A stretch of DNA of 63,427 nucleotides, counting the filler, from Asterionella formosa (taxonomy: Eukaryota): assembly GCA_002256025.1 (NCBI GenBank). It is 19 parts of 19 records of this genome, joined end to end, with 100 filler letters (N's around TTAATTAATTAA, not from the genome) between each part and the next. Parts side by side here need not be neighbours in the genome. Positions count along the whole stretch, not along the records: positions 48,202 to 50,018 come from NKIB01001119.1; positions 50,119 to 51,935 come from NKIB01001121.1; 17 more parts are not named here. The stretch is one strand, 5' to 3'. Position numbers and translations under genes: made by a program. The notes under the pieces were generated by a model, which searched no databases, was not told the DNA's origin, and was given only the letters and a program-made list of their open reading frames with translations. This document shows, piece after piece, positions 4,331 through 54,127 of the stretch (positions are counted from its first letter, which is position 1; the number at the start of each line of letters is the position of its first letter).

Positions 4331-4351
4331 AAGTGCCTGATCACACTGGTT

Positions 4352-4514
4352 TGCATATGATCAATGATGATCAGCTACCTACTACTGTGGATATTGTACC
4401 GGCCAACACCAAAGAAAATGTTACATGTGCATCCAGTGTGGCCAGCTTGGGTTTGCAAGACCGCGCAAACCAGGCCAATCAATTTGTTGGTAAGTAATTG
4501 AACTTGACCAATCA
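4352..4514 (+). repeat. Dispersed ~165-bp repeat, copy 1 (copy 2 at 39586-39759)
   Basis: Both copies share TGCATATGATCAATGATGATCAGCTAC, TGTACCGGC, CAGGCCAATCAA and ACTTGACCAATCA in the same order. Confidence 0.8.
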
Positions 4515-4771
4515 AAATATTTATAGTGAAGCGTGCTCTTACAATGGAGTTTTTTGTACAGGCGATTGTAGGACGAAAACTCGAATCACAAGACTCCTAT
4601 TCCGATGATGACGTTTCGGCGATTAGTGATTCTGATTCTGACATTTTGGTGACCGTTGAAAAGGCCGATATTGTCGAATTTTTGGACAACGATAGCTCAA
4701 CGTTGGCAGGGTTTGAAGAAGAGTTAAGTACATAGGTAATCTTCTTCATAAAGCCCCAAAAGTTAACTTTC

Positions 4772-5181: not shown

Positions 5182-5659
5182 GGGCGTGCTCTGATAATAA
5201 AAAATTATTATATCATGTGTGTATTATAACACAAATTATTCTGGTGATCTGCTACATAATATCGTCCTTGCGCTCTGATAATAGAGATATTTTAGATTAC
5301 TTCTCTGACATTATATATATTTTTAACTTTAATTTTCAACAGTTAAATTTTCATATCGATGCATCCTCTTGTATGCTATGCCGCCTCTTGTTCATTATAT
5401 GCATGAGTTCTATATATTCATCATTGTCGGTCACTCACCATGTCGACTTTCATCTCATCTCCTGATGATGACATTATGATCACATTGCTACTGTTAGCAA
5501 TGTGCTATCCACCAGTAAATAGGACGCCATCATTCAGGGAAAGTTTGACTGTTGATGAGGTCAGAAGAAGAAGTGGCAAAATCCGTCGCCACGCACTACA
5601 GCATCCATTATCGAGTCCATTCTGGACTTTGTTCAACAGCAAGCATGATGATGCTCTGA
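5182..5659 (+). mobile_element. PIF/Harbinger-type DNA transposon: left TIR plus transposase N-terminus (ORF from 5440, cut by contig end)
   Basis: TIR GGGCGTGCTCTGATAATAAAAAATTA. ORF IRRHALQHP..SPFWTLF..K.DDAL resembles stramenopile Harbinger transposase N-termini. A second copy lies at 56616-57683. Confidence 0.7.
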
Positions 5660-6904: not shown

Positions 6905-7680
6905 TCTCCCAGTCTAGTGTTTACTACCACACCTAGCAGTGGTAGATGAGTTCAGAAAAGTGTGTTCATTCCCTTTCTACTGGAGCGAGGAGATGAAATG
7001 TGGTGACGAAGTTCCAATTGGCTAAATCAGCGGTAATAGCAAAACAGAATTAACTAATAGTCTCCAAAGAACATACTTCTTATACTTGAGCTTTGACTTG
7101 ACGTGCCGAACCTGGTTTGCTGAGGAAGGCTTCAATTGATTCAAGCTATGAATGGCGTACTGCTTGATGGAACTCCTTGTTGTTGCTGATCAGTTGTGAT
7201 GAAATCACATATTTCAAATGAAATTATTCATGATGGTGTGTCTAGCTATTACCGGTAGTCATTCTTGTTCGCAATACTCATGTGATGTTTTGCGTTCCGC
7301 CCTCACTGAAGTAATCCGGAGTAGCTTTGTACTATGATTTTTGTATTTTTATGCTCCGTTCCTAGCTTTTTTTTTCATTTATTTATCATATACTATGATA
7401 CTATGGAAATCTTATTATATACCGGTACATCAATGACTACGCGGACCGGCGCGACGTTTTCTAATAAAGACGAGGTATGCCTGGTACCAGGTACCGGTAC
7501 CTGGTAGCTCTTACTAGGGTACGTGGTACCGTGGTACCTACCGCAATCATACTATCGTACCTGGTATCGTACCTCAGTNNNNNNNNNNNNNNNNNNNNNN
7601 NNNNNNNNNNNNNNNNNNNNNNTTAATTAATTAANNNNNNNNNNNNNNNNNNNNNNNNNNNNNNNNNNNNNNNNNNNNTA

Positions 7681-15942: not shown

Positions 15943-16840
15943 GAAGGTCCGGTAATCAGTGCACATAGTGTGCAGGTTGCTCGTTTTCTGTTCATCGATT
16001 CACGTATGAGAAAAAGGAAGGGGTATACCCCAAAAATTGTCGAACCCCTAAATATTGCGCCACTCTGATATTCTTTAAATTGGCGTTTACATAAACGTTA
16101 AGCCATTACTCGTTTTATTGTCAAAATGAGCTTGAAGTCAGCAGTCAGCAAAAGAAGTCAGCAGTCAGCGATTTTTTCAAATTTTCAGCGAACCAAGTCA
16201 GCAACAGTCAGTAGTTAGCAAGTTAAAGTCAGCATTTTTACGATAGTACTGGTACGTGGTGGTAGCAATATCACGAAGTAGATATCAATTAATTTTTTAG
16301 GCATCAATGTTGATTTCACAGTTTATTATCATGTATGGAGTACCAGGTACCAGGTACAACTACTATGTTCCTCCCGATAGTATAGTATGAACGTAGAAGG
16401 CATCGCTTTTAGTATCCCAACAACAAAAAGATGATGCGTTTCCATCGTTATTCTAATATGAAAAGTAGACACAATTCGTACAATGGTAACGGTAGTCGGT
16501 CAATTCCTATGTACAAAGTAGCTTGTTTGACATCAGCATGTTGAAGTTAGCAGTCAGCGAATATTTCAAATTTTCACCAAATCAAGTCAGCAGTTAGCAA
16601 CAAGAAGTCAGCAGTCAGCAAGTTGAAGTTGTTAGTCAGCGATTCTGCGGTGAAAGGTGGCAGCGCTCTTCTGTTTGAAAGTTTATAATGGTTACAGGTA
16701 ATCTAAATAAATTGAAATAATTTGAGATTTTCATCATTTCGGAATTGGTGAGCCGGACAGACTTCCAATGAAGTACGTTGAAACCGCTACGTGGAATTTT
16801 TAGCATATAGTGGGCGCAACTCGCTGATTACCGGACCTTC
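15943..16840. mobile_element. Complete 898-bp non-autonomous DNA transposon with 17-bp TIR and CAG TSD
   Basis: GAAGGTCCGGTAATCAG ... CTGATTACCGGACCTTC, flanked by CAG at 15940-15942 and 16841-16843. Internal AGTCAGC repeats. A second copy starts at 47479. Confidence 0.9.
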
Positions 16841-17192
16841 CAGTCGACTACGTTTTGGCTCCTGTGTACACCGGTAGTCGTCTCTGTATCCCGGTACCTG
16901 GTACCCAGTACCAGGTACCAGGTACAGTATTGTACATACCGGTAGATATATTGATCGTCTGAAAAATGTTGTTGCTACGACTTACATAACAAGACAAGCA
17001 AATATCATAAATATTTTAGTGTTATTAAATGTGACACATTCAGAAATCGTTGTGTTGTAGTACCAGATCCAAGAATATCAATCATATATAGAAGGAAGCA
17101 CAAAGAAAGCAAATCATGGAAGCAAGAAGTAACTGGCACCCGTACCAGGTACCTGGTACTATAAGACGAGACCTTAATTACCGGTATATATA

Positions 17193-20845: not shown

Positions 20846-22318
20846 TACCGGGTATACGGGTACACTTTATGCTGTTTTTACAAGTTGTTTGCAAGTACCA
20901 GGTGAGCGATTCCGCGCATCAATACAGATATTCCGGTATATAGAGTTAGGAAATATTGAGAGGACTCGACTAACACCTACTATTGTATACTTTGCTTGGT
21001 GTCATTTAAGAGAACAAGTTGTACATCAAGATTAACTAATAAGCTCATACATTCAATAAATACTACTACTTCTAGTTAGATACTACTTCACTTTGAATTC
21101 AAAAAGAGTCCAATTAGAACAGAACAAACATCATGGCAATGTATTCAAGGGTTCCTGTCATTCCTTTGATCAAAGGTTACAATGTATTTTCACCATCAAG
21201 ACTAAGACATTCCGAGTTGCTCTAACCGGTGGAAGGTTTGAATCATTTGATCAAGATATGATTGATGGAAGCTCTGTGGAAGCATTGTTGATTGGAGTGA
21301 GTCAATTTCATGACATGGGTAACACATGTGCTTTTAGCCCCCCTGCAGATACCTTTTCCTACTTTAAACGGTGTTTGACTGACATTGCCTTATCAGATAA
21401 GTTAAATGTGGAAGTACACCCAGACGATCAATCCTACAGCAGTTTTGATGAAGTGATGGTTTTGTGGCTAGATGATTGTTTACCAAAGGAGAGTTTTCAA
21501 CATCAACATCAATGGATGCCTCCCTACCTATCTAAAGCCTTTTCTATGTTTGTAATGGATTTCGGAGCTTGTATCAAAGCTTTAAACAGGCTACTTTAAC
21601 TAATGCCTCATCCAGAAGATCAAAATGGACTGTCGAAAGAATATCTGCTGATTATTATTATCCATTCAGTGCCCAATGAGTGGCAACAAGAGTTTGAATT
21701 AAATCATGCCAAGACTTCGGATCAATCAATTCACTCGGTTCTTGTTTACTCCTCTGAGAGTCAACAGTTGTTTAAGGATCAAAACAAGCACCTTACCAAG
21801 AACTCTTTTCAAACCATCACTCAAAATCGTCTTTGTATTGCCGAAGGCAATCGTGTGATGTTTCAAGAAAACAAGTGTGTCAGTCGTCAATTTTACAATG
21901 AAAAGTTTACTCCAAGTGGTCGTGGAAGAGCGCATGCCATTGTCAATGCGGCTGGTCATGCATGGGATCATCAAGCAACTGTCCGTCATCAAGATTTTCA
22001 AGCCAGTTGTATGTACCATGATTATCGTGGCCCTTGTCTGGTACATCCTGAAGCAGGTACACATACTTGGGGCAATTGCTTCCAGAACCCTCATACTCGA
22101 GGTGGTCGAGCAGATTGCACGGCTGGTCGTCATAATGGACATGGTGGCCATTCCGGTTTTGGTGGACGAGGACATTTTGGTGGTTGTTGAGGAGGTGGCT
22201 CACACAGTAATGCTACGCAAAGCTACCATGCATACTGACACTTCTAACCCTATGTCTGTTACACTTACTTGTATGTTAAATGCATGGGGTTATAATACTC
22301 ATCTGTCCATTTGGGGTA

Positions 22319-22561
22319 GGGGAATGGCTTAGTGGTTAGCACACCCACTGTGGTGGAGGGTTCGATTCCTGCATTCTCCACCTGCCTTTTTCATGTAGTC
22401 CCTAGGGTTCTTCCGGGGGGTGCAACTGACTAAAAGACAGGTCCCGTTGTACCGAATGGAAGAATAAAACCGGTACTAATTGTGTCCACTTATTTGGTGG
22501 GCCCGAGTGCAAATATTGGATAGCTTTAATGTACTATAAAATTTAATTGACTTTTTTTTCA
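22319..22561 (+). mobile_element. tRNA-derived SINE, about 243 bp, with 13-bp TSD, nested in the Gypsy element
   Basis: A box TGGCTTAGTGG (22325), B box GGTTCGATTCC (22359), acceptor-like pairing GGGGAATG/CATTCTCC. TSD TCCATTTGGGGTA (22306-22318) / TCCAGTTGGGGTA (22562-22574). Confidence 0.82.
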
Positions 22562-23182
22562 TCCAGTTGGGGTACCTGGTCGTACCGTTCCATGTGCCGA
22601 TCCTACCAAGAATATATTGGCCCAGGAAATTTCAGTGGTCACAAACTCTCCTGCTGGTCAATTTGTGGCTTTTGTCCCCCCTACTACAGCACAACAGGCA
22701 GCATATCATTGATGATCGCCATCACAGAGATATGTGCAATAAAAGCGATGCTATTCATAATGACTTATTGAGTATATCTCACATTAATCATCACCATGAT
22801 AATATTTTTAAGTTTATAGTTTGAATAAAAATACTCCTGTTGCTGTAATGCGGGACATGTATAAATGCATCAACGGACATGACATTCTACTTACATATCA
22901 GGGTCCGATTCCGGTTTCATGTTTTACTCTAAGGATACATTAATGTCAAATGATTTAATTCCGATGTCTCTCTTAGCGCCACAATTGGTGGATGCTATGC
23001 CTATTCATAAAATCCTTCGAGTGTTATTTGATAGTGGAGGATCCTTATCCTTAATACATGGACGGGTTATGCCTCAAGGTATTTCTTTGTCTTAGCAACG
23101 AGACTTCCCAATTAATACATACCATAGCTGGTACTAATTCATCTCATGCCAGTGTTACTTTACATGATCTAATTCTACCTGA

Positions 23183-23319: not shown

Positions 23320-25461
23320 TAGATGATATTGATGATGTGGGTTGTTGTTTTTCAATAAATTTTACGGATCACCTTCAATTATTGGACACTATTTTACAGC
23401 GTTTACAGGCAAATTGTTTCACAATTAATCCATTCAAATGTGAATGGGCAGTCTCAGGGACAGATTGGTAAGGCTACTATTGGTTACCTAATGGACTGAA
23501 GCCTTGGTCTAAAAAGGTCTGATAATATGCCCTCACCTACTACTTGATCTATAAAGGTCCAATAACAACATGTCTTCACCTCCTACCAATCTTAATCAAG
23601 TCAGATCGTTTCTTGGTGCTGTTACCTACTATCGAGACATGTTTTCTCGACGCTCTCATGTTCTCGGACCACTCATGGATTTAATTGGAACTGGTCCATT
23701 TGTCTGTTTACCTATACATCAACAAGCTTTTCAAGAAATGGAAGCATTATTAGTTGCAGATACACTCATGCACTATCCTGATCATAATTTTCCTTTCCAT
23801 ATTTTTACTGATGCTTAGAAGTATCAATTAGGGTCAGTCATCATGTAAAACAATATTCCGGTTGCTTATTATTCTCGCAAATTATCTGCAGCTCAGAAAA
23901 ATCATACAACTATTGAATAAGAATAACTTTCTGTGGTAGAAACTTTCAAAGAATTTTGCTCCATGTTATTGGGTGCATTTCTACAGGTTCGCACTGATCA
24001 TCATAATTTTAATAATAATAGTTTACACACTCAACGTGTTCTGCAGTGGAGAATTTATATTGAAGAATATCATCCTACTTTTCACTATGAAAAAAGGGGA
24101 CTGGCAATGCTTTTGCAGATTCCATCTCTCGCCACTCGAGGCTTGAGCCTTTGGTGGGGGATGATATTGGACCGAAGTCTCCAGCATGAGCATCCACTTC
24201 TACCTTTTAAATTGAAATAGATGATGAACCTTTGCTTATCTGCTTCCTCAGTCATCCAATTTTGGCAGACAATATTCAATATCCGCTGGATTATAATTTA
24301 TTACATGATCATAGACAATTGCTGGATATAAAATTGATTCTCAATCAACAATACATCCATTTAAATTTCCCTCTATCAATTTTCAATATATACATTCTTT
24401 AATTTTTAATGTGTTTTGGGAAGAATCCAGGAGATACTTGGCATATTGCTATTCCTATATCACTATTCTTGGATCCTATTATTAATTGGTATCATCAGAT
24501 GTTAGTTCATAGGGGTATGATACAATTGCTAAACATTTTTATCACCCTACATTAAAAGCAAGAGTGGAACATATTGTAAGCATATGTGAAGCATGTCAAT
24601 GTAAAAGATTACCTGGTACTGGTTTTGGTGAACTTCCACCCACCAGGAATGCATTGTTATTACCATGGTCAGAAGTTGCAGTGGATCTAATTGGTCTGTT
24701 GAAAATAACAGTGGCTGCTCAAGTGATTGAATTTCGTGCTCTAACTTGTATTGACACAGTCACCAATTTAGCAGAAATTTCACGTATCAATAATAAAACA
24801 TCAGAAAATATTTCAATGAAATTTGAAAATGATTGGTTAGCCTGATATCCCCATCTAGAACATTGTATACATGACAATGGAGGTGAATTTACTGGTATTC
24901 CTTTCTTATACAAGTTAGTTTTGAGTGGAATTAAAGATGTAACAACTACAGTCAAGAATCCACTAGCAAATGCTATCTGTGAATGTTTAAATCAATAATC
25001 AGTGACAGTCTATACCTGGTACTCTTTTCTTGTAGGGGCTGTCCTGGCCCTGGTGGGGTTTCAATGAAAGTACCAATTCACCAAGGGAGTTGAGGTGAAA
25101 TACAATTCTATGGAAGGAAAATAAAGCTCAACATCTCATAAATCACAATACAGTGAGGTCTTGTAGGGGGGGGAGACTAACTTGCATCCCAAAAACCAAG
25201 ATAAAGGTTGAGACCCAGGGCAAACCTCTGTTTCCTGCTCTTTTCAAAACAGAAAAGTGGGGCTGCAAGTAAATCATGAGGAAATTGATTACATGCCCTC
25301 GATTGGATGATATGATTCATCACAATTTAACCTTTGTCTACACAAACACCTGGAATTCTCATGTGGTAAAATAGTTGTAGAGAACAAATTCTCAAACTGG
25401 TAGACTGGAACTCAAACCTTGATAGGTAGGTTGGTCCCCTTTACGCTCATTGGATAGTCTT

Positions 25462-38755: not shown

Positions 38756-39585
38756 ATGAATTACAGATTGGATATGAGGCCTTCGTCACTTGTGCATTAG
38801 ATAGATTAGATTCAATTCTCGCAACTTTGGCGGACACTGCGACAGACTCATAGACTCATGATCACTACAGAGTGCAATTACTATGTGATAGAATCAGATT
38901 GCATATAGGGTACCAGAAATATCATATACTACTACATACCATAGAGATGGCAAAGACTTACTATGCAATATGCTGGACCCTTCAGACATCGATCGTTAAA
39001 AAGAAGTGGTACACAAATTCAATATTTTATTTGTTCCGAACTCTTTCTCTATATATAGCTCTGAACATGTGTTCTGGTAGGGAGTAAAATTATATCTACA
39101 TTGAGCAATGTTGATATAACATAAACATCTTCATTCTTTTTGAAATGGAACTCTATCAATGTGGTGCCAATTTCTACTTAGTTTAAATATTCAGACACAT
39201 TCTAGCGTTATGAGAAAAGTACAAAGAAACAAAATCCCTGTTCCATGCCAATTTTACAACCCTAGCCATGTTATACTTTAAATTAGGGTTAAGCCAGGGC
39301 CTAAGGTTGCTCCATTTGAAACCCTAGTAGGCAAAATTTAAAATATTCTTTAGGGTTGCCTAAATTCCCTGGAATTAAGAATTTTATTAGCTATTTTTGA
39401 ATGACGGGATTCCATTTGAAATATTTTAATAATCAGTGGAAATTTGCGGATACATTCATTGATTAATAATGTAAACATTCTTCATCACCCTTTATATATA
39501 TACCCTATACTACATCAGCATAGCTATATGTGTCATATGACCCGGCGGGTTGGCAAATATTTGAATGTGCTTTCTGGTGCTAGTA

Positions 39586-39759
39586 TGCATATGATCAATG
39601 ATGATCAGCTACTTGCAGTGGATGCAGTACTGTACCGGCAAGCATCCCAAAAAATGATTCATGCATGTGCATTCCTCAGTGTGGCTGGCGGAAGTTTGCA
39701 ACACCTTGCAGATCAGGCCAATCAAATGGAGATAAGCAAGCAATTCACTTGACCAATCA
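39586..39759 (+). repeat. Dispersed ~165-bp repeat, copy 2
   Basis: Collinear with 4352-4514. Confidence 0.8.
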
Positions 39760-39779
39760 TATTATACATGTGGATGTGG

Positions 39780-40310
39780 GCACTTACAATGGAATTTGTG
39801 GGACAGGAGATTTTGGGACTAAAATTTCCGGAGCACGACTACTATTTGCGCATACTGGTCCAACTTTCTTCACAAAAAACAACAATTTTCCAACCATAGA
39901 ACGATATTCCTTACGGAGAGTCACTTTGTCTGGATTCTTCTGAGAACGATTCCTGGCAATGCTGGGTTCAATGCATCTCTTGGATACTTTCCAAAAAAAT
40001 CATGATAATCTTGGAGCATAACCTGCACAAATCCTCCTTGCTCGACTCCAAGTAGCGTCCCATTTTATCTTGGCCCCAATTGTACCACACTCCCAAATGT
40101 TTCTTCAAAAGGCCAAGCTCCTTTATTGTGAAGTATATCTTGATTTCATTAATTAATCATTTAATACCGTTTGGCTTTCCAGCAATTGCACAATCATCAA
40201 CATGTGTACCAATTATCAGGATAATTGCATTGTTTTCCTTGATGAAGAATACACACGGATCGACCTTGTTTTGCTGCAATCCAACTTTGGTTAAGTTTTG
40301 ATCCATTTTC
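39780..40310 (-). mobile_element. Copia reverse transcriptase fragment
   Basis: KVDPCVFF...IIGTHVDDCAIAG...FTIKELGLLKKHLGV, with stops. Confidence 0.85.
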
Positions 40311-48101: not shown

Positions 48102-48379
48102 NNNNNNNNNNNNNNNNNNNNNNNNNNNNNNNNNNNNNNNNNNNNTTAATTAATTAANNNNNNNNNNNNNNNNNNNNNNNNNNNNNNNNNNNNNNNNNNN
48201 NAATATAGTTTTATCTTGTAATTAGAAACAATGAACATGATTGGCAAGCCTTGAACCGTGGAGCTCGTTGCTTCTTACTTTTTGTAGGTTAAACTTATTA
48301 CGCTTGGGTCATTGTTGTATGTTGCTTCTTCATTATCCGTTGTTATCTTTCCATGGCAAGGGTGGGGCGGGAAGTCAAA

Positions 48380-48910
48380 GTTGTCTGTACTATGATAGAT
48401 TGGGAACAAGCACGAAAACGAGCAGGCTCAAAAATCAAAGGAGAACAACGTACTACTATCTTTAAACTCGAGGTGTGACGATGAAGAAGAGAAGAAAATA
48501 TGAAAAATTCAATGACCGCCGATGTCCCACAAGAAGCAGTCAATATGGAGACTGAAGTGAACACCCTGGTCAAGTATCTGTATGCGATGAAAGAGATGAT
48601 CAACCTACGCGATTTGGCTTTGTTTATCGTACCCGAAAAGATTCGCCGACAACATCACACACCAGTAGGACAAAAACTTTGATGGATTAAAACAGTCAAG
48701 CAACATCTCTTTTCAGGCATGGCATCGGGAAGATGGAATAACCCTGGGAGATGGAGCTCGGCTCCGCATTGCACATCAGATTGAAAGACTTGAGGGACTT
48801 TGTCCTCAGGTATGGTTAAGAACTGGGCGGGATTAAATTCTCATCTTGTGTCTCACAGGGCCAAATACGATTAGATGTTAAGATTTAATGTACTATAAAA
48901 TTTCATTTCA
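48380..48910 (+). mobile_element. Degenerate non-LTR (LINE-like) 3' end
   Basis: VKYLYAMKEMINLRDLALFIVP..IR....L*WIKTV resembles diatom LINE ORF C-termini. Ends in TTTAATGTACTATAAAATTT (48884-48903). Confidence 0.55.
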
Positions 48911-50118
48911 ATATATGTATCTGTTGTTATCTTTCCTCTGCCACTGTAGTCCTTTCACATGCAGTCAATATTGTTGGTCTCCAACAAGGTAAGTATGACA
49001 TTTGTGAATTGAAAATCCGCTGGTTACTGATGAGACCTTGCTTGACAGAGGGAAGGCGAACTATCGTCAATGGTTCGAAGAACTCCTTGGTGTAGGTTAA
49101 TTTTTTGATTCTCTGTTTGTGTTGCTTGCCATTCAAAACTTCAACTAGCTCACCCTCTTTCTTATAATCTCCATTAGTCAGAGGTGTTTGTGATCATTCC
49201 ATGGAGAGCTAGTACGTGAGAGAGGCAGGGCTTCGCCTGACGAATGGAACAGGAAGAGGATGAAGCGGCCGTGATTTTATGGCAGCCTAGAAACCAAGGA
49301 ACCAGCATGGGTTGAGCAATTTCCAGGTGGCCAGATTTGGGCGATGCTATTGGAGGCTAGTGTTACATCCGAAGAAAGTTCTTGTTGATACCTTATGTGG
49401 ATCAAAAACGAATTTACATAACAATCCATCAATATGGCTGCCTATCCATCAGCCTTGCGAACTGACTAGAATTGGAGATGATAAATAGGTGCTCTATAAA
49501 TATAGTGGCATTCCCGTTGATCTTTCCAGTAGCCTCTAATTGGCTAGCAATTGCTGTTCGAATCTACTAGGCCTCAGCCATCCATGTTACTTTGTTAGGA
49601 GTTATAGTCAGTACTCATCTCGGGAAACCATAATTGATGAGGATGTTGATTGGCGTTGCATGATGCCTGCGAGTGTGCGAGGGGCGTCCAAATACCGAGC
49701 AACACTTGGCAACAGATTAAACTATGAATCAATTAACAATAGGAAAAGATGGACAATAACCTCCTTTAAGTATTCATTGCTACAACACGTTTCCGTACCC
49801 GACATACTGGAGGAAAAATTCTTTTTTACATGTCAAGTGCTCCATGTGAGCCCAAATAGTTAATCCTTGCGGAATTGTCAATTTCGCATGTATATCTAGC
49901 CTAACACAGACGAACTAATCATTCAATTGATGTTGACAGTAAAAACTGAGATCAACTATAAAATTTGTTTTGGTCTTCGTTTGCTTATTTTTGAAGATGT
50001 AACCAAAAACAGACATCANNNNNNNNNNNNNNNNNNNNNNNNNNNNNNNNNNNNNNNNNNNNTTAATTAATTAANNNNNNNNNNNNNNNNNNNNNNNNNN
50101 NNNNNNNNNNNNNNNNNN

Positions 50119-50880
50119 GCAGCTACCCTAAATCACACAATAAAGTTTGAGTGTTGTAATTCCGCCATGTCTGTCATTTTTAGCCCTTCAAATTTCCGAG
50201 TTGACCCAAGAATTTTGGCTGTGTTGGTTCCTCTTTACTTTGGTCCATAATTTTCCCTCTGAATTTAATTCTTCCTGAATTTTCGAGATCGCATGGCATG
50301 CATTCTTCTTTTGGAGTTATGCCTGGAGACGGCCATTCCTCCTCATCATCAATATCAAATTTAAATATTGTGGGACGGCTGGATATACTTTGAAATGTAT
50401 GTATTCCAAAGCCCTCTGTGCTTGTTATGCTCAGGTTGGTTGGCCCGTTTCATTTGTGATCTTCTATTTAAATTCCTTTGACATTCAAGTATACAGGGAT
50501 AAATTTTCGACCCATCTGCTGTAGCGATGTCTGCCACTGAGGAAACCTATAAATACATGCGACATGCGTTGATGTGTAGCAATCGATAATGACAAACTCC
50601 CTTGGATGCCAGGTAACTCATGATCATTAAGTCGTTCTCGCATTCTTGTAGGTGTCCAAGCAATACTTGTCTCCACTTGGAGGTTGTGAGCGCCTAAAAT
50701 ATCTTTTATTCTTGTCATCCATGTAATTGTAAGATATGGAATATTAATTGCTGGATACATGAGAAGACTTTCCTCTCTCTCTGATTCTAGTTGTAGGGGC
50801 CGTAGGGAAGTATCCATCATTTTTACAACTGCGTCATCTGCATATTTATGACAGAGGGATAGCCGTAACATAATATAAGA
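50119..50880 (-). mobile_element. Degenerate LINE (Ambal-like) post-RT fragment
   Basis: LQLES...L.YP....YL..TW...IK..L; after a frameshift, ND..IM...INACRMYL.V..VADI.TADG. Confidence 0.65.
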
Positions 50881-50929
50881 TTTAATTTCAATTTTTCCGC
50901 CATCACATTGTCCTCTGCTCAGTTAAAAA

Positions 50930-51935
50930 ATGTTTAAATTTATAGTACGTTAAAGCTAACTACTGATCGCGCTTGTGACCATACTAGTATATGCTTGGGA
51001 AGAATTTGTACCGGTTATTAATTGCCATTTCCCTAGTTATTGCATTAAGTGAATTTGTTTTTCATTTGTATTTGTGGCACCATTTTACTCTGCTATCACT
51101 CCGTCCTTTTCTGGAGTTATTTGCATTGCCCTCGTTGTTGTTCCCTTTACCTTTCCGTTACCATTTGTAATTGTGGCATTATTTAACTCCTTCGAGCACC
51201 ATCACTTGTGCTTCTTTTGTGCGTCATTGCCCTCGTTGTTACCTTCATCTTTCTGTTGTCCTTTAAAATTTGTAATCATTCAACTCTGCCAACCCCACCT
51301 CCTCTACTCCAGCTGTTGTCATTGTCCTCATTCCCCCCCTTGCCTTTCTGTTGAAAATTGCAATTAAGGCATCATTTAACTCTGTCTTCACCTACTCCCA
51401 TCCTGCAGTTTTTGGTAGTAGCATCACTGTGTCTTGGCCATCCAACTTGGATTTTGAATCTTTGAAGCATCAAACTATATTCAAAGGTTTGGTAATGAAA
51501 AAATCAGTTTGCATTTACTTACACCCCTGATACTGACATAGAATCCTTTGCCTTTCTTTTTCCTCTTTTAAACTTTTGGATGGATAAATCTCTTTTGTGT
51601 CCCTACTAGTAGCTGCTTTAATATATCTGTCTTCACAGAAGAAAATAATTATGCTAGGTACCCTGTTAATACCGTACATAGCTAATACCTGGCTGATGTT
51701 CCTTGCTTTTCAATGTATTCCCACCCCTGCATCTCATGAATTCATCCTCTAGTGTCACACCCCGTTTAGTGTTTCCTTTTCTAGCTAGTAGCCAAAATGT
51801 ATATTGAACATATTCTTCTTGTGCTCAGTAAAAGGGCCCGCAACTTCTCCAAAGCTACTACTGTCACTATCACCGCTGATTTGTGACATAATGATGATGC
51901 AAGCGCACTGAATCAATGCAGGAACAATTCTGGGG
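50930..51935 (-). mobile_element. Probable retroposon 3' region ending in the shared tail
   Basis: Minus strand reads AATAACCGGTACAAATT...TTAGCTTTAACGTACTATAAATTT, near-identical to the SINE tail. Upstream coding signal is very decayed. Confidence 0.45.
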
Positions 51936-53357: not shown

Positions 53358-53470
53358 TGTTCGTCTCTGGATACTGCATCTTGTGTCGAGTATGCAGCTG
53401 TTATACTAAAAAGGTGGCCTTGTTCGTCTCTGGATACTGCATCTTGTGTGGAGTACTAGGCAGCTGTTAT
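53358..53470. repeat. About 47-bp direct repeat twice (period 63) in a probable TE remnant
   Basis: TGTTCGTCTCTGGATACTGCATCTTGTGT.GAGTA..GCAGCTGTTAT occurs twice. Confidence 0.85.
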
Positions 53471-54127
53471 GTCGGAGATGAGCAACAGTTTTTTGGGAGA
53501 GACAGTAAAAGTTGCACCATGAATGAAGTGATTTCGGTGGTTCCAGAGATCTAGTAGGAAGGGAGTGTGTCTGCAGACTGTGGATGAGTATATGGGTCCA
53601 TTGTGTCGTGTGATCCAAGATCTGTGGTGGTTGAAGGCGTTAGAGGGAGTATTCTTTCATGGCTAGACCCCAGTGTAATGCAAGGTGTCCGTGGAGAGCA
53701 TGGTTCCAACCGATCAGGGACTGTTGGTGAAAGGCAGAGTAGAAGGCTTGGGCTAGGGATTCGGTGGGGGGAGGAGGCGCAGGGAGCGGCCAGACAGGAG
53801 AGTGACTTAATTGCCAGGAGATTATTCCTGCTTCTAGGGGAGTGGTGATAACNNNNNNNNNNNNNNNNNNNNNNNNNNNNNNNNNNNNNNNNNNNNTTAA
53901 TTAATTAANNNNNNNNNNNNNNNNNNNNNNNNNNNNNNNNNNNNNNNNNNNNTGCAACATTTTACTTAGCTAAAATTATGTGGTACTGATGGTAGTTACG
54001 GCGGCTTACAGGTAACCCCTTTGTTTATGTGCTGGAGGTGAAAGGAGGACAGAGAAGCACACGGAACAACTGCAATCAAATTCCTCTTGCACAACAAGAA
54101 CAACAACATACTCCGAACTTTTCGACA

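Follow-up and report, generated by a model that had tools for sequence, protein, structure and literature searches.

Sharing of 3′ tails between SINEs (short interspersed nuclear elements) and LINEs (long interspersed nuclear elements) is textbook knowledge for animals and plants. The tails shared in so-called stringent pairs, such as UnaSINE1/UnaL2 of the eel, SmaI/RSg-1 of salmonids, and Bov-tA/Bov-B of ruminants, are not poly(A) tracts. According to two accounts, stringent LINEs need their own 3′ end, which the SINEs borrow (PMC7245038, PMC5786205). Here, we describe a candidate for such a pair in a stretch of 63,427 nt, filler included, from the Asterionella formosa assembly GCA_002256025.1 (hereafter the window). 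A SINE and a protein-coding, LINE-like element in this window share a 3′ end of about 27 nt, and the best explanation, which we favor with moderate confidence, is that the reverse transcriptase (RT) of the LINE copies the SINE in trans. A SINE/LINE partnership is probable, with the tail as the putative recognition signal.

As in the stringent pairs, the SINE carries a tRNA-like head, a protein-coding retroposon has the identical 3′ end, poly(A) tails are absent, target-site duplications (TSDs) of 13–19 bp flank the insertions, and the long element is 5′-truncated. Unlike in these pairs, the elements have just a short block of 27 nt in common, in which no conserved stem-loop was detected, 10–18 variable A/T-rich bases follow this block, and no RT of the partner was found.

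The non-LTR (long terminal repeat) retrotransposons of stramenopile algae include LINE/Ambal and RTE-like elements; the repeat annotation of a Pleurosigma diatom lists SINEs together with LINE/Ambal (PMC12803021), and RTE-like non-LTR elements are reported from Thalassiosira pseudonana (PMC2806351). No SINE/LINE pair described from diatoms or from another stramenopile alga turned up in the literature excerpts consulted.

A tail motif on three contigs

The window comprises 19 contigs, one of 28.9 kb (9598–38511) and 18 of ∼1.8 kb, joined by spacers of the form N44-TTAATTAATTAA-N44. Searching it for the 17-mer CTTTAAYGTACTATAAA with up to two mismatches returned three matches, at 22524 (plus strand; the SINE), 48883 (plus strand; copy 2), and 50939 (minus strand; copy 3), compared to a mean of 0.06 in dinucleotide shuffles, none of which (0/100) reached three. 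According to blastn, 22525–22544 is identical to 48884–48903 at 20 of 20 positions and to 50958–50939 at 19 of 20.

A sequence-only reading of this DNA had proposed that the tail of a SINE recurs at LINE-like 3′ ends on two other contigs. All three tail strings that it reported are present at the positions it gave, each on a separate contig. We also recovered the upstream motif ACCGGTAC.AATT that it described as shared, at similar spacing, by the SINE (22469–22481, 52 nt upstream of TAGC) and copy 3 (51017–51005 on the minus strand, 59 nt upstream of TAGC). The LINE-like C-terminus of an open reading frame (ORF) upstream of the tail applies to copy 2 only, whereas copy 3 lacks an upstream ORF. 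In all three copies, 10–18 variable A/T-rich bases separate the motif from the flank, and the motif is not the very end of the insertion. A partial tail-like string, ACTATAAAATTTGTTTT at 49955–49971, matches 48892–48908 at 15 of 17 positions close to the end of the copy-2 contig; considered as a further copy, it was judged a chance match (blast E 0.81).

A SINE of very high copy number with a tRNA-like head

The anchor copy of the motif is the end of a genuine and very abundant SINE whose head is putatively tRNA-derived. The full-length copy (22319–22561, plus strand, 243 nt) is composed of a tRNA-like head (22319–22380), a body, and a 3′ module that starts at about 22455 and has its conserved end at 22548–22558, before a final GAC+T8+CA; the terminal block held in common with copy 2, as defined by blastn and alignment, spans 22521–22548. 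The head matches the Rfam tRNA model from end to end (positions 1–71) at a sub-threshold 20 bits (gathering score 29; E 0.13), and its anticodon arm is shortened relative to the model; ARAGORN called no tRNA at the head. As regards a tRNA head with internal RNA polymerase III (Pol III) boxes, GGTTCGATTCC and TGGCTTAGTGG were spotted by eye. TSDs flank the element on the left (TCCATTTGGGGTA, 22306–22318) and on the right (TCCAGTTGGGGTA, 22562–22574) and agree at 12 of 13 positions.

To test the boundaries of the SINE, we placed the Logan contigs from four runs of metagenome data on positions 21900–23000 at a likeness of at least 80%; the rows evaluated are the best-supported ones, besides which there are 723 loose ends and 10528 pieces. 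The four runs contributed 898, 788, 8046, and 699 contigs to this 1.1-kb stretch. In all four, 5′ loose ends fall at 22317–22319, and the consensus agreement of the upstream flank is just 0.41–0.44. The numbers of contigs that turn unrelated before this point are at least 23, 57 (13+20+24), 45 (17+28), and 31 (13+18) per run. At the 3′ side, contigs diverge after 22548 (at least 14 contigs, X7) or after 22551 (at least 26 contigs, X3), and among the pieces listed the 3′ ends are 22548–22558. Furthermore, some contigs represent the empty site, with 22315, 22318, or 22299 joined straight to 22582; they contain TCC(A/G)GTTGGGGTA once and lack a SINE. Because these contigs carry a single target copy, 22319–22561 is an insertion with a 13-bp TSD (12/13). 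The element is thus short (243 nt), dispersed, and multi-copy, with defined ends and, at its 5′ edge, unrelated flanks in all four runs, and it has both a TSD and an empty site.

A scan of Joint Genome Institute (JGI) metagenomes for the 20-mer of the tail yielded 36 loci, of which 35 are chance occurrences in A/T-rich DNA and one is a second copy of the SINE (L003), with 91% identity over 100 nt up to the edge of its contig; no LINE copy was among the 36 loci.

The placed contigs also reveal subfamilies with other heads or central parts, seen as loose ends at 22352 and 22410/22411 and as joints that skip 22364–22514. Many contigs switch to another tRNA-like head before 22352 (consensus agreement 0.67–0.76), and many to another G-rich/A-rich central part after 22410. 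Since subfamilies exchange heads and central parts, the SINE family is modular. The flanks of the window copy (21900–22195 and 22600–22790) are themselves multi-copy in the metagenomes, with 5–83 contigs per variant site, and weak RNase H and integrase-H2C2 matches lie at 23555–24842 on the plus strand; no LTR pair was found around the SINE. The multi-copy flanks and the weak domain matches suggest that either a degraded Ty3/gypsy-like element or a gene family harbors the SINE.

A TSD-flanked insertion that ends in the SINE tail

Copy 2 lies at the end of an ORF-bearing, LINE-like insertion of 565 nt (48353–48917, plus strand), delimited by tblastn and by a flanking direct repeat. The two repeat copies (48334–48352 and 48918–48936) are identical at 18 of 19 positions with an exact core of 14 nt; the repeat was found independently twice, by a script and by a general repeat search, and a 14-nt match was reached by 0 of 5000 shuffles. 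It encloses the whole 565 nt, whose 3′ end is formed by the 27-nt tail (48881–48907, 47 nt past the ORF stop) and 10 variable bases. This tail corresponds to the last conserved 27 nt of the SINE, with identity at 26 of 27 positions to L003 and at 20 of 20 positions to the SINE in the window. Over the 120 nt upstream of it, comparison with shuffles detected no likeness either to the SINE (p 0.6) or to copy 3 (p 0.94).

The insertion contains a decayed C-terminal ORF (48485–48836, plus strand) in two frames, 48485–48682 and 48669–48836, which are interrupted by an in-frame stop (TGA) and by a frameshift and end at a natural stop (48834–48836). When P0032, a relative of 318 aa, was compared to it by tblastn, residues 13–70, 210–235, and 265–317 covered 48361–48855, while ∼140 residues in between are absent. 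The homology begins at residue 13 of P0032, at the very edge of the direct repeat. Searches of the copy-2 contig for LTRs and for terminal inverted repeats found none, so that copy 2 combines a TSD and 5′ truncation with the lack of either kind of terminal repeat, as a non-LTR element would. The repeat-bracketed block and the layout of its homology to P0032 point to a TSD-flanked insertion that is 5′-truncated, internally deleted, and pseudogenised. A host gene that is spliced at two GT-AG introns and has its stop inside the motif was considered and rejected, as the ORF pieces are contiguous in the relatives; for the same reason, copy 2 is a pseudogene with an in-frame stop and a frameshift.

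The copy-2 contig is best represented in public freshwater and algal metagenomes. Its minus strand also holds a sub-threshold Rfam match to HIV-1_SL3 at 49158–49180 (E 0.007; 24.3 bits, with gathering at 33), a 23-nt hairpin that is almost certainly due to chance.

A dispersed ORF family linked to the tail

Among 1.84 billion representative proteins, the ORF at 48485–48682 has five relatives, and a profile search extended these to 21. The sequences of the two window frames form a single continuous ORF in P0003, P0006, and P0013. The family is dispersed, with identities of 42%–91% to P0003 and each relative on one to four contigs, and it is decayed: by our reading of the alignment, at least 7 of the 21 relatives are frameshifted, deleted, or divergent at their ends. 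Frameshifts affect P0005, P0012, P0019, and P0041, deletions P0011 and P0018, and divergent ends P0004, P0014, and P0016. The longest member, P0032, came from the cluster members. The Atlas clusters nearest to the family consist of hypothetical proteins; the few members with a placement belong for the most part to Bacillariophyta, a weak hint at a diatom affiliation of the host.

Three of the frameshifted relatives, P0005, P0012, and P0041, translate through the 3′ untranslated region (UTR) and thereby display a tail-like ..Y(Y/S)K.. string. This string is collinear with the window, where LCLTGPNTIRC*DLMYYKISF corresponds to VCLHGPSAIISLGITNYKILF in P0005, and back-translation of its ..YYK/NYK.. 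stretch gives the motif core. GQK and YKI are 240 nt apart in P0005 (one copy counted), compared to 231 nt in the window. P0012 is 77% identical to P0005 up to ..YKILFISL, where, some five codons past the tail-like string, the alignment ends; P0005 itself continues for just five residues. These collinear strings indicate that the ORF-bearing element has the tail as its conserved 3′ end.

Another, distant member of the C-terminal domain is encoded on the minus strand at 53468–53852, on another 1.8-kb contig, and includes the strings ..LIGWNHALHGHLALHWG.. and ..LLDLWNHRNHFIHG... Its stretch 53849–53468 shares 26% identity with residues 101–195 of P0032 (E ∼1e-5). This domain copy is followed downstream by tandem repeats and is devoid of the tail motif; probably, it represents another retroelement family of the same type.

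Is the ORF-bearing element a LINE?

We read copy 2 as the end of a dead non-LTR retrotransposon that would have been 5′-truncated and internally deleted. A LINE is favored by the flanking TSD, the truncated 5′ end, the absence of terminal repeats and of poly(A), and a terminal ORF that stops 47 nt before the tail. The zinc-binding region C-terminal to the RT in L1-type non-LTR retrotransposons is known as zf-RVT (PF13966). In P0032, W comes right after a CX2CX8HX3C motif, and a conserved ..IGW.Q..G..S.QWG....LW...CW..RN..LYG region lies downstream of it; zf-RVT is the second-best Pfam family on a 90-residue excerpt of this protein, aligned over profile positions 47–81 of 85, the zinc-binding part of the profile. 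In the Atlas, the Pfam-bearing cluster nearest to P0016 is likewise zf-RVT, at 0.85. The proposal of the sequence-only reading that the tail of copy 2 belongs to a LINE-like element holds in that the insertion is TSD-flanked and 5′-truncated, its family is dispersed, a zf-RVT-like CCHC motif is present, and the linkage of ORF and tail appears to recur in three diverged copies; no RT or endonuclease was found, and both the LINE and the kinship to Ambal that this reading considered possible stay putative.

Several observations weigh against a LINE and its partnership with the SINE. The zf-RVT match (E 0.11) scores 13.6 bits, far under the cut-off of 27.5, and is thus a lead rather than a membership, and full-length P0032 has no Pfam match. 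The Atlas score of 0.85 falls where matches are frequently due to chance. Pfam detected neither an RT nor an endonuclease domain in 307 window ORFs (8+13+140+146) or in 12 proteins of the ORF family, and a search for longer forms of P0003 was empty. A structure model of the family is unusable (predicted local distance difference test score (pLDDT) 41.5, predicted template modeling score (pTM) 0.20), and searches of PDB sequences with the family profile and with P0032 returned nothing relevant. The tail in P0005, P0012, and P0041 was read from protein letters instead of DNA. As to the direct repeat of copy 2, a repeat of 14 nt or longer occurs in 93 of 2305 real control windows (4%), mostly in tandem-repeat regions. 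In the Logan placement, the tail bins of the SINE are no deeper than the head bins, and therefore no abundant class of tail-only sequences is visible at 80% likeness among the best-supported rows. Finally, the sequence-only reading had suggested looking for a conserved stem-loop in the last 80 nt. None was found: the four tails folded no better than shuffles (z −0.18, −0.59, +1.24, and +0.60), and they have no common hairpin over the motif, four sequences being too few for covariation.

The missing RT is also what an unlikely alternative builds on, namely that the ORF-bearing element is a passenger, either a non-autonomous or long-dead retroposon or another element mobilized by target-primed reverse transcription (TPRT), and that an unseen RT drives both this element and the SINE. 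In agreement with this, neither the window ORFs nor the family proteins revealed an RT, all 21 relatives as well as the cluster members are at most 318 aa long, many copies are decayed, and the copy in the window is internally deleted. However, the contigs bearing the relatives are mostly 0.5–7 kb in size and decay has cut their ORFs. With a truncated copy, short contigs, and cut ORFs, the RT region was never in view, and its absence is weak evidence. Moreover, the CCHC/zf-RVT-like motif is placed as in LINE ORF2 proteins, and copy 2 begins within the ORF, like a 5′ truncation. We therefore prefer to regard the ORF as the probable C-terminal part of an RT-encoding LINE.

A SINE-type fragment in a periodic array

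Copy 3 (51029–50925, minus strand) resembles a diverged 3′ module of the SINE, with its tail at 50958–50936 and a final ACA+T6 that is similar to the GAC+T8 of the SINE. By blastn, it is 70.9% identical to 22455–22558 of the SINE over 110 columns (∼105 nt). Upstream of the motif, its likeness to the SINE scores 16.5 compared to 8.5 ± 1.35 in shuffles, a value reached by 1 of 2000 (p ∼0.0005). The T8 and T6 runs after the two tails are only suggestive of Pol III transcription.

A tRNA-like head was searched for across the copy-3 contig and not found, and the region upstream of copy 3 holds neither an ORF of the family nor a Pfam match. Next to copy 3 lies an array with a period of ∼100 nt (51026–51382), made up of five repeat families (D1–D5) with spacings of 95–105 and 193 nt. 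The array motif GAGG(A/G)CAATG..TGATGG is repeated just downstream of the copy-3 tail, for which reason the module looks as if it had been inserted into the array. A candidate TSD (12/14; 51094–51081 and 50919–50906, p ∼0.045) would give an insert of ∼160 nt. The likeness to the SINE 3′ module, together with the lack of both a family ORF and a tRNA head, argues for a SINE-type fragment, and we read copy 3 as a diverged, headless SINE-type copy, either 5′-truncated or from a subfamily, that was apparently inserted in the array. The sequence-only reading had taken it for a LINE-like 3′ end, which the likeness to the SINE module, the dissimilarity to copy 2, and the lack of a family ORF speak against.

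It would still be conceivable, albeit improbable, that copy 3 represents a LINE 3′ UTR and the true donor of the ∼105-nt 3′ module of the SINE. A homology of 105 nt at ∼71% has the length typical of regions shared by SINEs and LINEs, no tRNA head is present within ∼900 nt upstream, and ∼100-nt periodic repeats directly precede copy 3, as they do in some LINE 3′ UTRs. On the other hand, the sequence upstream shows no similarity to the ORF family or to RTs, the array motif on the far side of the tail makes the module look inserted, and the possible TSD would limit copy 3 to ∼160 nt. A SINE-type fragment is thus the reading that we retain.

The 145-aa ORF downstream of copy 3 (50488–50922, minus strand) was considered as an RT and rejected, its YADD occurring by chance and its Pfam and PDB matches being zero. 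The sole match of this ORF among 5.8 billion proteins is itself.

Other repeats in the window

Further interspersed repeats connect contigs of the window: 16248–16841 with 48101–47478 (80% identity), 5298–5659 with 57683–57295 (92%), and 4346–4601 with 39580–39846 (72%). The contig at 7679–9497 consists of near-perfect tandem repeats of 492 nt (99.9% identity), which encode a repeated FRG1/fascin-like beta-trefoil domain.

Discussion

Whatever the class of the ORF-bearing element, it has the 3′-terminal sequence in common with the SINE (26–27 of 27 nt). These terminal 27 nt are the only part that the two share, and both are flanked by TSDs of 13–19 bp. One could suppose that the 27 nt of copy 2 represent a separate, extremely 5′-truncated SINE insertion beside an unrelated repeat: just 27 nt are common, the upstream sequence has no likeness to the SINE, and extreme 5′ truncation is known in TPRT. 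We consider this very improbable, since the direct repeat encloses all 565 nt and not the 27 nt, and since three diverged relatives apparently carry the tail, in P0005 as far from the ORF as it is in the window. Hardly credible at all is that function and not descent makes the motif recur, as a terminator, polyadenylation element, or other signal of the host: the motif is A/T-rich, lies 47 nt past the copy-2 ORF stop, and is followed by T-runs in two copies, but identities of 26/27 and 20/20 speak for descent instead of convergence, just 1 of the 36 metagenome loci with the 20-mer has common flanks and that one is a SINE, and all three copies sit in an insertion-like context.

The short common end, the TSDs of 13–19 bp, and the A/T-rich termini fit TPRT by a stringent LINE whose end is borrowed by a SINE. 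Both retroposons end in ..TTTAATGTACTATAAAATTT.ATT plus a short variable A/T-rich stretch. In such a model of TPRT, the RT of the LINE would recognize its own RNA by this shared non-poly(A) 3′ end, and a SINE RNA presumably made by Pol III would bear the same 3′ end and be copied in trans. Copy 2 would have been 5′-truncated upon insertion and would later have undergone an internal loss of ∼140 codons and acquired a stop as well as a frameshift, a dead LINE copy still enclosed by its putative TSD of 14–19 bp. The 27 nt would then act as the recognition signal.

A partnership of this type is of an ordinary kind, here in a little-studied lineage, and a SINE/LINE pair leaves general principles unchanged. 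What we describe might, as a tentative assessment that stays somewhat short of an even chance, be the first documented SINE/LINE pair in a diatom-like freshwater alga. It would then comprise an undescribed LINE lineage with a C-terminal domain outside Pfam, a non-poly(A) and apparently unstructured signal of 27 nt, and a tRNA-SINE that the LINE amplified through this signal to very high copy number, with both elements visible across many freshwater metagenomes. If confirmed, the pair would offer a tangible way into the non-LTR retrotransposition of these algae and a case of a short, seemingly unstructured shared signal, and the SINE would provide a very abundant marker for population and metagenome work.

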